From an uncultured Alphaproteobacteria bacterium (lineage in GTDB: Bacteria > Pseudomonadota > Alphaproteobacteria > RF32 > CAG-239), in the NCBI GenBank assembly GCA_944391505.1, contig CALXTV010000005.1:5033-69032 (forward strand): 64,000 nt of DNA. Reading direction: 5' to 3'. Every line of letters starts with the position of its first letter. The stretch's first letter is position 1. Below are positions 26,918 through 29,712 of the stretch, piece by piece. Made by a program: the position numbers and the translations under genes. The notes beneath the pieces are model-generated. The model was not told the origin of the DNA. It did not search any database and worked only from the letters and a program-made list of their open reading frames with translations.

Positions 26918-28195
26918 ATGAAAAAAGAGATTTCCAAGCAAAATCAGAATTATTTTCTGTTGCCGATTGTGTTATTGCAAATGTGGTTTGAACGGCAGGC
27001 TATTCCGCAGAGTGATTTGGCTCCGCAACTGAAAGCCTTGCCTTCTTCTCAGCCGGAAGAAAAAGTGAGTATTGATTTTTCAGACTGGGACGGATCCAGA
27101 CACGGAGCGGACCTGGTAATTGAAGAATATCTGTGGGGCATACGTTGCGGTGTTATGCAATTTGTCAATCCGGATGTTTGTTCTTTTAACGCGGTTTTGA
27201 CGGCCGCCCGGACGGATCAGATGTGTGAAATATATTCTCCGGCGAAAGTCCAATATTTTGCTGACGGCAGCCGGAAGGTTATTCCGCATGATGTGTCAGC
27301 TTACAACACGGATGCTGAATTTGGCTGCTGGGGGCTTATCGGAATTAAACAGGCCAAAAATTTGTTTCCTCAATACTGGAAGATTTTTGACCGGCTGCCC
27401 AAAGAAACCAAGTTTTTGTGTTCACCCGAGGCGGACAAACTGAGAATTGCCAATCAGGAGAAAGGGGAAATCGGATTTAGTTTTGATGCTGTTGACGTGG
27501 AACAGCCGGTGTCTTTCTTTTTGGGCAATTTGCGTCCGACGTTTCAGTATATTGCCAATGAAATAGCCGAAGGCAGAGGGGCTCGTTTTTGCCGACCGGA
27601 AGAAAAGCAAAAGCTGGATTTTTTGAAAAGCAGGATTTGTCTGATGAGCGGCGGTTGTTATCCGTATAATCTGGCAATGACACTGGCTTCGGAAAAAGGT
27701 GCGGCTCAAATCCGGAAAGATTATGTGAAAAACGGTCTTAAAGGCAAGGATTCTTTCTGGCTGCTTATCAACGGCGAATGTGTTGACAAGCTTGAAGGCA
27801 TTAACCGAATGGTAAAGGAAGATGGGAGTGACATTAATATCTGTGTTCCGCCGTCGGTGTATAAAAGCTGGGGAAAACCGTTTACTGTTGCTGAGCTTCA
27901 AATTATTAACGCTTCGCGGCGTTTTATTTTTGATAGCCAGTCGGAAGATGACTATTTTAACAAAATCAACCGATTGCGTTTTGACAACCGTTTAATCAAT
28001 ATTGTAAAATGGGAAAAAGGCAACAAAATTATTGAGGTTGAAGAGGTTGAAAAACTTATCGAGCGTCGGTTTAAAAAACTGGATGAGCAGTTGAAAGACG
28101 TTTTAGAACACGAACAACGGGAAAGATATTCTTTGGCGCAGGGGTCGTCCGGTCCGACAAGAAGATCTATGTATACAAATTATTATTCCATTTGA
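26918..28195 (+). CDS. large orphan hypothetical protein (425 aa)
   Basis: ORF with an AT-rich upstream region. No recognisable motif. Confidence 0.5.
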   Translation: MKKEISKQNQNYFLLPIVLLQMWFERQAIPQSDLAPQLKALPSSQPEEKVSIDFSDWDGSRHGADLVIEEYLWGIRCGVMQFVNPDVCSFNAVLTAARTDQMCEIYSPAKVQYFADGSRKVIPHDVSAYNTDAEFGCWGLIGIKQAKNLFPQYWKIFDRLPKETKFLCSPEADKLRIANQEKGEIGFSFDAVDVEQPVSFFLGNLRPTFQYIANEIAEGRGARFCRPEEKQKLDFLKSRICLMSGGCYPYNLAMTLASEKGAAQIRKDYVKNGLKGKDSFWLLINGECVDKLEGINRMVKEDGSDINICVPPSVYKSWGKPFTVAELQIINASRRFIFDSQSEDDYFNKINRLRFDNRLINIVKWEKGNKIIEVEEVEKLIERRFKKLDEQLKDVLEHEQRERYSLAQGSSGPTRRSMYTNYYSI

Positions 28196-28323
28196 TTGTT
28201 GAAAATTGATTTAAAAAGCTCTTCGTGATGAAGGGCTTTTTTTTGTTTGACAAAATTCAATATTTAACATATATTTTTGTATATTTAGATATTTTTTTGT
28301 CAAACAAATTAAAATATTTTATT

Positions 28324-29712
28324 ATGTTTGGAAATATTATAATCAGAAAAGTTGGAGTCGAGCAACAGATTAAGTTTGTTCGCGACAAGACATTGGAAAA
28401 GCTTTGGAATCTGCTTAAGAAAGGGCGTCTGGATAAGGCTGCGGAAGCAGAAATGATAGAACATCCCGAAGGGTTGGAGGATTTTATAAAGGCTTATTTG
28501 CAAAAGTATAAGGCATTTGTAAAAGACAACAACAAGCTGTTTGTTCAAAAACAAATCGGACATTCGGGATTGTTTCCGGTTTTCTGTGAAGTTTTTGATT
28601 ATTCTCAGTCAGATGAAAAATCCGGTTATGAGATTATGATTAGTTTGGTACAACAAGTCAGAATGTATCCGAACGAGGAGCAGAAAATTTGGTCTGTGGT
28701 TAAAGCCTATTTTAGAAAGTATGGTTATGTTCAGGCTGATTTTGCTCAGCTTGATGATTATTGCCGGATTTGGATCGCTTGTCCGCAATATCGGAATCGT
28801 TATCATATTTCACAGAAAGTTGAGGCCGATTTTCTGTTGCCGGGGAACCGGGGGTTCTTGTTGCCGTTTCTGAAGCAGAGCGGCAGATTTCGATATCATG
28901 AAAACGAGTTTCGTTTTTTGATGATGAATAATCTCTATCCGCAGGAAGTCAGTAATTATCTGGAAAATTTCGGAAAAGACATGAACTTGACGGAAGAGGA
29001 ACAGAGGCAGCTTTTTTCTCAAAATCCGAAAGCTGTAAGATGGGTTAAGGTTAATACATCGAGCCCGGTTCTTTTTAGAGAATTTGTTTTGCCTGAAATC
29101 AGGAGACAAAAGCTGCCGATTTTGAAAAACGATGTGTCTCAGTTGATACAGCTTTCGTGGAATTGTCCTGTTTTGTTGAGGGAATATCTGAAAGAATACG
29201 GATATCTGGAAGCCGAGCAAGAGGCTGAATTGTTTTTTTGCGCAAATAAGCAAATTCGTCTGGAGTATGGGCAAAAATTTGGTTTTGATGTTGAAAACCT
29301 TATCAACCGGGCTTCCAGATTTGGTGTTGAGTCGCGAATTGCTTCTGCACTGAAGAAGGAGATGGCCTTTGTGCGAGGGTATATTTCACGTGCGACGGTC
29401 TTGAGGTTTAATTTGCATTGGATTGATTTCGGAGAATATTTAAGGAGATGTGATTTGTGTAAAATGCTTCGAGGATCTTCTTATGGTGATCAGTTTTATG
29501 CTGATAACGAACGATATTTTTCTCGTGATATGCTTCAAGGCCCTTCGTCTTATAATAAGTCAAATCCTTTTTGCAGGTTTTGGGCGTGTATATACGAAAA
29601 AGATATAAGGCTACGTAAAGATGATACCATACCGTATAGGGTGATAGAATCGTTACGACGGGTACGAGTGTTGCTTGAAAATGCCGCTGAACGGCATTAT
29701 CTGACCGCTTGA
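28324..29712 (+). CDS. large orphan hypothetical protein (about 462 aa, helical)
   Basis: The ORF runs from 28225, but the upstream part overlaps a terminator hairpin, so the start is probably the M at 28324. Confidence 0.5.
   Translation: MFGNIIIRKVGVEQQIKFVRDKTLEKLWNLLKKGRLDKAAEAEMIEHPEGLEDFIKAYLQKYKAFVKDNNKLFVQKQIGHSGLFPVFCEVFDYSQSDEKSGYEIMISLVQQVRMYPNEEQKIWSVVKAYFRKYGYVQADFAQLDDYCRIWIACPQYRNRYHISQKVEADFLLPGNRGFLLPFLKQSGRFRYHENEFRFLMMNNLYPQEVSNYLENFGKDMNLTEEEQRQLFSQNPKAVRWVKVNTSSPVLFREFVLPEIRRQKLPILKNDVSQLIQLSWNCPVLLREYLKEYGYLEAEQEAELFFCANKQIRLEYGQKFGFDVENLINRASRFGVESRIASALKKEMAFVRGYISRATVLRFNLHWIDFGEYLRRCDLCKMLRGSSYGDQFYADNERYFSRDMLQGPSSYNKSNPFCRFWACIYEKDIRLRKDDTIPYRVIESLRRVRVLLENAAERHYLTA

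Follow-up and report, generated by a model that had tools for sequence, protein, structure and literature searches.

We examined two adjacent genes, ORF1 and ORF2 (open reading frames 1 and 2), in a 64,000-nucleotide stretch of DNA from an uncultured Alphaproteobacteria bacterium of the RF32 lineage (GenBank assembly GCA_944391505.1, contig CALXTV010000005.1; the whole stretch is hereafter called the window). An earlier reading of the letters alone (the original prediction) had taken the pair for a horizontally acquired effector islet integrated at a tRNA gene. Both genes exist, with the lengths of 425 and 462 amino acids and in the position between a dehydrogenase and tRNA-Leu(CAG) that were given there. 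They make up a cassette that has recently and repeatedly been swapped, whole or in parts, among species, and that lies beside, not inside, a tRNA integration hot spot.

Two unannotated genes under purifying selection

The following features define the locus.

25638-26630, minus strand: D-2-hydroxyacid dehydrogenase (HacidDH), left neighbour of ORF1
26918-28195, plus strand: ORF1, 425 amino acids
28324-29712, plus strand: ORF2, 462 amino acids, from a conserved ATG at 28324
29724-29760, plus strand: intrinsic-terminator-like hairpin, 3' of ORF2
29820-29905, minus strand: tRNA-Leu(CAG) (Rfam tRNA, 51.7 bits), an integration hot spot

Earlier starts for ORF2, at GTG 28225 or ATG 28228 (494/495 amino acids), read into a promoter module described below and are unsupported. 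The coding N-terminal extension 'MKGFFLFDKI...' proposed by some gene finders overlaps the -35 and -10 boxes of this module; ahead of ORF1, its counterpart falls in another frame in the related locus L002 and is interrupted by a stop codon in the window.

The proteins were said to have no recognisable motifs, and neither ORF1 nor ORF2 matched an entry of Pfam, NCBIfam, PADLOC or PHROGs (E up to 1), or a PDB sequence. Scans of 21 ORF1 and 14 ORF2 relatives revealed no significant family, and none common to more than five members. Absence of a Pfam match (E ≤ 1e-5) is not rare in this DNA, being observed also in 8 of 30 further long ORFs of the window that were scanned. A literature search on RF32 gut Alphaproteobacteria found nothing on the ORF1/ORF2 proteins.

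The content of guanine plus cytosine (GC) was 0.433 in ORF1 and 0.400 in ORF2, and that at third codon positions (GC3) was 0.448 and 0.400, compared with means of 0.479 (s.d. 0.039) and 0.537 (s.d. 0.073) for the long ORFs of the window (n=48), among which ORF1 and ORF2 ranked fifth and second lowest. The cassette as a whole had a GC of 0.398, against 0.469 for the remaining window, so that the two genes are AT-richer than their neighbours, as predicted. The description of the proteins as lysine/asparagine-rich did not hold, since lysine and asparagine make up 8.0% and 4.9% of ORF1 and 7.1% and 5.4% of ORF2, no more than in the adjacent MutY or M23 peptidase. The ratio of nonsynonymous to synonymous polymorphism (pN/pS) within the species was ~0.2 for ORF1 and 0.3-0.45 for ORF2, and the corresponding ratio of substitutions between species (dN/dS) was 0.31 and 0.34. 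ORF1 and ORF2 are functional genes, and purifying selection acts on both.

Exchange of the cassette between species

When the window was compared with L001, a locus from a different species, the block at 26802-29838 showed 89.9% nucleotide identity, whereas both flanks showed 71-75%, and the edges of the block were sharp. The synonymous divergence (dS) and the identity at third codon positions in this comparison were as follows.

ORF1: dS 0.16, third-position identity 0.90
ORF2: dS 0.23, third-position identity 0.86
HacidDH, MutY, BacA, response regulator and XseA: dS 1.09-1.47, third-position identity 0.49-0.56

With dS at 0.16-0.23 inside the block and 1.1-1.5 outside it, the term 'horizontally acquired' was right in substance. 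The excess similarity of ORF1 and ORF2 over the flanks was also seen against the loci L002 and L003. The intergenic stretches of the block were conserved equally to the coding stretches, and codon bias is therefore no explanation for the low dS. In a second clade, in which the pair adjoins a tRNA-Gln gene, comparison of L006 with L008 revealed a mosaic (dS 0.24 for ORF2, 0.96 for ORF1 and 0.98 for GlyRS), and between L005 and L010, ORF1 was more diverged than GlyRS (dS 1.26 against 0.77). The cassette had a GC of 0.35-0.42 in every host, at host GC values of 0.33-0.48; since it is independent of the host, it looks foreign in higher-GC hosts only, including the window (0.469), and a cassette GC of ~40% points to an origin in lower-GC relatives.

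Alternatively, the two genes might be vertically inherited, clade-specific housekeeping genes, their low dS reflecting codon or nucleotide constraint and their composition reflecting amino-acid content. Fixation of the pair in the species, a synonymous polymorphism (pS) like that of the flanks, conservation of the pair across many species and a dedicated conserved promoter would all be consistent with this proposal, but it has to contend with a third-position identity of 0.90 in ORF1 against 0.49-0.56 in the flanks, with the equal conservation of the non-coding stretches and the sharp block edges, with the existence of at least three genomic contexts and of deletion derivatives, with genome pairs that are more diverged in the cassette than in the flanks, and with the host-independent GC. 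We consider it very unlikely.

A further sign of recombination was found on the far side of the tRNA. XseA (32028-33392, minus strand) showed a within-species pS of up to 0.26 and the adjoining response regulator one of ~0.12, compared with 0.04 or less for MutY, HacidDH, ORF1, ORF2 and BacA, which suggests a separate recombination tract beyond the tRNA.

The pair is a resident neighbour of a tRNA-Leu hot spot

The placement of the pair next to a tRNA gene had been read as the classic position of an integrated island. The tRNA-Leu(CAG) gene is a genuine integration hot spot, its 3' end being polymorphic within the species, and the real integration site was located to the right of ORF2.

29779-29825, no strand assigned: tRNA-Leu terminator plus the last 6 nucleotides of the tRNA, marking the integration site

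This site is empty in the window and in L023 and L027, the two European Nucleotide Archive contigs to which the window is 100% identical. Three contigs (L025, L028 and L029) carry hipBA at this site, and two (L024 and L026) a hipA remnant. Both kinds of insert lie between the tRNA and ORF2 and are flanked by an imperfect ~47-nucleotide direct repeat consisting of the tRNA terminator plus TGGTGC. In L022, the tRNA end carries an island encoding a large serine recombinase, an ankyrin protein, an SNF2 helicase and an N6-methyltransferase. Wherever tRNA-derived repeats are present, in the strains and in L001, both copies lie to the right of ORF2. Because all inserts and repeat copies are found on that side, ORF1 and ORF2 are a resident neighbour of the hot spot and not its cargo. 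In L001, the tRNA-Leu terminator and 19 nucleotides of the tRNA 3' end are duplicated (12869-12929 and 13059-13119) around a 129-nucleotide filler, and this arrangement looks like the scar of an excised element.

Other hallmarks of an islet were sought within and around the cassette. Between 26802 and 29820 there are only ORF1 and ORF2, neither of which matches recombinase families, and hence no integrase or recombinase. A duplication of the tRNA-Leu 3' end near 26900, expected for an integrated islet, was found neither there nor elsewhere in the window, in which the best match to the tRNA, far away, spans 12 nucleotides and none reaches 13. Nor was there presence or absence of the island type among conspecifics. 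Eight places were shown for the exact BacA protein, and in seven of them the pair was present (98.8-100% identity); in the remaining one, L022, the recombinase island occupies the tRNA end and the fetched sequence stops short of the position of the pair, so that the pair was found in all seven contigs whose fetched sequence covers this position. The exact ORF1 protein occurs in 11 contigs, and the same arrangement was seen in the seven places shown. Within the species, pS of the cassette was similar to that of the flanks, indicating that it behaves as core.

Compared with known tRNA-adjacent islands, the cassette shares the location beside a proven integration-site tRNA, a composition AT-richer than the host and a signal of lateral transfer; it differs in having no integrase and no att repeats, in being present in every conspecific contig examined, and in that the true islands (hipBA and the serine-recombinase island) sit between it and the tRNA. 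The proposed islet integrated at the tRNA is thus wrong in mechanism: the hot spot is real, and the pair lies beside it, outside the inserts. One could still suppose that the pair is the remnant of an integrase-mediated tRNA-Leu island which later lost its integrase and distal att site, given its AT-rich composition, the demonstrable use of the adjoining tRNA 3' end for integration and the duplicated tRNA 3' end in L001. This we regard as highly improbable, because no genome compared has an integrase or a tRNA-derived repeat to the left of ORF1, because the pair of the other clade is located at a different tRNA, tRNA-Gln(TTG), which lies on the upstream side of the pair, or at no tRNA, and because the current inserts push a copy of the tRNA terminator towards ORF2, which must already have been there.

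A duplicated promoter/leader module

Each of the two genes is preceded by a copy of the same ~120-nucleotide module, defined from an alignment of 8 copies. Its layout is a terminator-like hairpin, TTGACAAAA, a 17-nucleotide spacer, TATAT, an inverted TGTCAAAC box ~45 nucleotides downstream and an AT-rich leader.

26802-26917, plus strand: module copy 1, before ORF1
26811-26838, plus strand: degenerate hairpin of copy 1
26839-26844, plus strand: -35 box TTGACA of copy 1
26862-26867, plus strand: -10-like TATATA of copy 1
26891-26898, plus strand: TGTCAAAC box of copy 1
28204-28323, plus strand: module copy 2, before ORF2
28213-28241, plus strand: ORF1 terminator hairpin, in copy 2
28247-28252, plus strand: -35 box TTGACA of copy 2
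28270-28275, plus strand: -10 box TATATT of copy 2, after a 17-nucleotide spacer
28298-28305, plus strand: TGTCAAAC box of copy 2

The 64 kb contain the pattern TTGACAAA-N35-60-TGTCAAAC at these two places and nowhere else (0 expected), and the core motifs upstream of ORF1 are kept in all related loci, down to 45% protein identity. No Shine-Dalgarno site precedes ORF1 or ORF2, in contrast to most other genes of the window, which have an AAGGA/GGAG site. Possession of its own module copy and its own terminator implies that each gene is transcribed separately, and the shared module suggests that the two are probably co-regulated. The inverted TTGACA/TGTCAA pair may serve as an operator. Transcription is predicted to start near 26875 and 28282. 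A conserved leader mini-ORF (ATG-TCA-AAC...) was considered and rejected, because its length and frame vary and its ATG is replaced by TTG upstream of ORF2. An Rfam scan of 26500-30000 gave the tRNA alone above threshold. Scanning of metagenomes with the module pattern returned a single match, L030 (JGI, Joint Genome Institute, contig Ga0208865_1000003), an unrelated phage-like stretch with small cysteine-rich ORFs, in which the match is probably due to chance.

The block shared with L001 at 90% identity starts, on the left, exactly where copy 1 does (26802). Exchange of the cassette would probably proceed by homologous recombination, anchored on the left in the repeated promoter module and on the right, probably, in the conserved tRNA-Leu(CAG).

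Relatives, distribution and pairing

The proteins had been described as orphans, which proved too strong, as ORF1 has 32 homologue clusters (41-98% identity) and ORF2 at least 8-9, none of which bears a name. A profile search of 1.84 billion representatives returned 42 proteins for ORF1, 11 of them below 1e-30. A search with the ORF2 profile gave at least 9 proteins, to which the relatives of 487-615 amino acids seen in the loci must be added. In a scan of one genome per species, 13 loci were found in 12 metagenome-assembled genomes, all titled uncultured (Alpha)proteobacteria, and no relative of ORF1 or ORF2 was detected in viral contigs, phage records or plasmids (viral-contig scan, and tblastn with both proteins). 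The ~3-kb cassette is restricted to a clade of uncultured gut Alphaproteobacteria.

Of the 13 loci, 11 have an ORF2 relative next to ORF1, on its downstream side. L001-L003 share the gene order of the window (MutY, ORF1-ORF2, then tRNA-Leu and BacA), in L004-L010 a tRNA-Gln(TTG) lies just upstream of the pair and GlyRS downstream, and L014 and L016 represent other contexts. The original prediction had named syntenic orthologues throughout the family as the observation that would speak against it; conservation of the pair was indeed observed, but in at least three genomic contexts and not in a single syntenic position.

Two in-frame ORF1::ORF2 fusions with different junctions were found, P0016 (L010, 9980-11803), which represents 35 member sequences, and P0026, which represents 21 and is without head residues ~86-157. 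They were initially taken as Rosetta-stone evidence of a joint function, a use that was downgraded because P0026 also lacks this part of the head. As two independent deletion and fusion derivatives, P0016/L010 and P0026 suggest that the cassette is dispensable.

ORF1 is predicted to be a head-stalk-tail protein

The AlphaFold model of ORF1, built on an alignment with 23 homologues, had a mean predicted local distance difference test score (pLDDT) of 85.2 and a predicted template modelling score (pTM) of 0.80. It is mixed alpha/beta, unlike the helical protein that had been anticipated.

Nucleotides 27095-28027: alpha/beta head, ~residues 60-370, preceded by an N-terminal helix
Nucleotides 28037-28144: helical stalk, residues 374-409
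Within nucleotides 28145-28192: conserved, disordered C-terminal peptide SGPTRRSMYTNYYSI

From these parts, ORF1 would be a protein with a ~310-residue alpha/beta head, a helical stalk of variable length and a C-terminal docking peptide. Foldseek found no match to the model at E<0.1 (best E 0.69 in PDB and 0.30 in BFVD); the head thus has no recognisable fold, and is possibly a new one. Across the wide ORF1 family only W73, G117, F209, G245 and W318 are invariant, and since these are tryptophan, glycine and phenylalanine residues, they look like structural and not catalytic positions. The stalk differs in length among relatives and often forms a charged coiled coil, whereas the last ~15 residues are conserved (consensus RDLSGPSRSSxYTGF), with a tail consensus of S-G-P-[ST]-R-S-S-[LIM]-Y-T-G-[FY]. 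Even at 17-27% identity, relatives have the head and a tail that reads S-x-P-x-R-x(3,4)-T-G, behind unrelated linkers, one of which is a 150-residue Gly/Ala/Val-rich segment. Eight distant relatives instead bear transmembrane-like segments at the N- or C-terminus, in several cases as hairpins, which by the usual topology rules would place the head in the cytoplasm.

The tail would act as a docking peptide. Known C-terminal docking peptides include that of encapsulin cargo (GSL-type), the FtsZ C-terminal peptide and the SSB tail, and ORF1 shares with these the architecture of a globular domain, a variable linker and a short conserved terminal peptide; its motif, however, is unlike the encapsulin GSL-type, FtsZ and SSB peptides, and no shell or hub gene is adjacent.

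Copies of the ORF1 module and tail also occur in small coiled-coil genes, rich in E, Q, R and W, of L001 (9584-9817) and L002 (7591-8050 and 8840-9874). In L001, an in-frame TGA stands immediately ahead of the tail, and of the two copies in L002 one is frameshifted and one intact (344 amino acids); these genes are either decaying head-less paralogues or recoded genes. The idea that the tail is common to unrelated proteins was downgraded, as these genes arose by segmental duplication of the ORF1 3' end together with the module.

ORF2 is predicted to be a repeat-variable alpha-solenoid

The model of ORF2 was all-helical, in agreement with the earlier description, at a pLDDT of 68.9; the homologue alignment was shallow, so that this model rests on few sequences.

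Nucleotides 28816-29034: 81-residue repeat, a single clear copy (residues 165-237)
Nucleotides 29449-29589: C-terminal cysteine cluster C376, C379, C417 and C422
C-terminal end of ORF2: conserved helix LLENAAERHYLTA

A hidden Markov model (HMM) of the repeat found one copy in ORF2, two in L004, L005 and P0038, and four in L009 and L014. The four tandem repeats in the L009 and L014 relatives (615 amino acids) are near-identical (repeat HMM E 1e-38 to 1e-43 each), indicating recent expansion or concerted evolution. The cysteine cluster is predicted to be possibly zinc-binding. Foldseek returned weak generic solenoid matches (PPR, MO25, Vac8 and importins; E 0.12 or worse). ORF2 would be an alpha-solenoid that varies in repeat number and carries a cysteine knuckle, a type of protein suited to binding peptides or other proteins.

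Among alpha-solenoid adaptors, TPR proteins bind the EEVD tail of Hsp70/Hsp90, and MO25 binds the C-terminal WEF peptide of STRAD. The pair resembles such systems in that ORF2 is modelled as an all-helical repeat protein and ORF1 offers a conserved C-terminal peptide, and MO25 with a C-terminal peptide was among the top Foldseek matches of ORF2 at E 0.16 (best E 0.12; none significant). It differs in that the 81-residue repeat far exceeds TPR, ARM and HEAT units.

A proposed joint role of ORF1 and ORF2 in the cell

The reading that we favour, to which we would give about an even chance, is that of a constrained, co-regulated and exchanged two-gene cassette outside the hot spot, whose proteins most likely act jointly, either in the cytoplasm or on the inner side of the membrane. 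In this partnership ORF2 would provide recognition and ORF1 would be a tethered scaffold, both serving an accessory, dispensable function rather than acting as Sec-secreted effectors. A hydropathy scan found no 19-residue window at Kyte-Doolittle 1.6 in ORF1, ORF2 or their close homologues. Residues 13-25 of ORF1 are weakly hydrophobic, are polar or charged in P0013 and P0022, and are modelled as a packed helix with pLDDT >80. The lack of a conserved signal peptide, together with the many cysteines and the transmembrane-anchored relatives, leans against Sec-type secretion.

Several observations weigh against this joint role. ORF1 relatives in L013, L016, L018 and L019 keep the tail without an ORF2 neighbour, which also sets the pair apart from the alpha-solenoid adaptors, and the main partner of the tail is therefore probably encoded elsewhere in the genome. 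The fusions hint at a coupling of the two proteins but may be debris of deletion and decay. The invariant head residues, which look structural, provide negative evidence on function only. Finally, presence of the pair in all sampled strains is more in keeping with a core gene than with a gene of conflict.

The original prediction regarded the two proteins as secretion-system substrates. If the system were a specialised one, for example type IV, the C-terminal peptide would act as a translocation signal, and the repeat protein would be an effector aimed at the host. Type IV effectors with C-terminal translocation signals include the Legionella Dot/Icm, Bartonella Bep and Agrobacterium Vir substrates, and such signals are typically a matter of charge or loose composition. 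Like these, the cassette has a conserved element at the extreme C-terminus behind a variable linker, carried also by the truncated coiled-coil paralogues of L001 and L002, as well as a repeat partner with a variable copy number; its genes are accessory, AT-rich and laterally exchanged, and the genome encodes a signal-peptide-bearing ankyrin protein. Unlike them, the tail is a fixed, specific sequence motif, the head has distant relatives with transmembrane-hairpin anchors that would keep it cytoplasmic, neither protein has a known effector domain, and ORF1 is not fast-evolving but conserved better than the neighbouring housekeeping genes. Type IV genes were not seen: the only secretion-system genes among the window ORFs that were scanned or had precomputed Pfam matches were flagellar, and no others were found in the ~20 related loci with precomputed Pfam annotation. 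An effector role appears mildly disfavoured, and on balance we think specialised secretion unlikely.

The pair might instead be an uncatalogued anti-phage or anti-mobile-element system, or an addiction module, with the ORF2 repeat as sensor and ORF1 as membrane-proximal effector. The two-gene anti-phage systems in PADLOC are likewise compact, exchanged cassettes, and the mosaic boundaries, the transmembrane segments of the head relatives and the variable neighbourhood would suit such a role. This neighbourhood takes up toxin-antitoxin and restriction-type genes: hipBA and the recombinase island (SNF2 helicase, methyltransferase) insert alongside, L002 has genes that are Fic-like and AAA-ATPase-like, judged by eye from their N-termini alone, and L016 has a DNA methylase, DUF87 and TerB. 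Yet neither protein matched a single family of PADLOC-DB 2.0 (E up to 1), no enzymatic effector domain (nuclease, ATPase, NADase or pore domain) was recognisable, and the phage, viral and plasmid collections contained no relatives. Moreover, defence systems are usually patchy within a species, whereas the cassette is in every conspecific contig examined. A role in defence seems to us rather improbable.

An outside prospect, which we would assign a low probability, is that ORF1 founds a new fold and family whose tail is an undescribed targeting signal, for secretion, compartment loading or hub docking, and that together with the repeat-variable ORF2 it constitutes a new kind of mobile two-protein system, traded among species of gut Alphaproteobacteria.

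Other features of the window

The gene with by far the most deviant composition in the window (GC 0.333, GC3 0.204) encodes a 322-residue ankyrin-repeat protein (54244-55212, minus strand; Pfam Ank, E 3e-21) with a signal-peptide-like N-terminus, MNTRKLLASAVVMLCLSTNINAQQ, and adjoins tRNA-Thr (55374-55449, minus strand). Compared with ORF1-ORF2, it makes a far better candidate for foreign DNA or for an effector.

Four further large ORFs are without a Pfam match and flank a flagellar group.

1259-2365, minus strand: 368 amino acids
3927-6323, plus strand: 798 amino acids
8341-10950, minus strand: 869 amino acids
14797-17874, plus strand: 1025 amino acids

The flagellar group comprises FliM (12104-13195), FliL (13217-13744), an MgtE_N-like gene (10969-11622) and DUF6468 (11632-12111). 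In addition, 23323-23715 (minus strand) encodes a cysteine-rich protein of 130 amino acids with a signal-like N-terminus and no Pfam match, the C-terminal half of which is conserved in L002 at 54% identity.

Significance

Two unannotated protein families are delimited here for the first time, in gut Alphaproteobacteria that are uncultured and barely studied. What is new, besides these families, is the confident predicted structure of one of them without a detectable known fold, the dedicated duplicated promoter module and a clean case of exchange between species, the latter being seen between species that are otherwise at saturating synonymous divergence. The locus also corrects the simple rule that DNA which is AT-rich and next to a tRNA is an island, as the real integrants here are other elements. 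The cassette is thus a small, concrete unit for studying gene exchange in these bacteria and the role of a conserved C-terminal peptide that would serve in docking.

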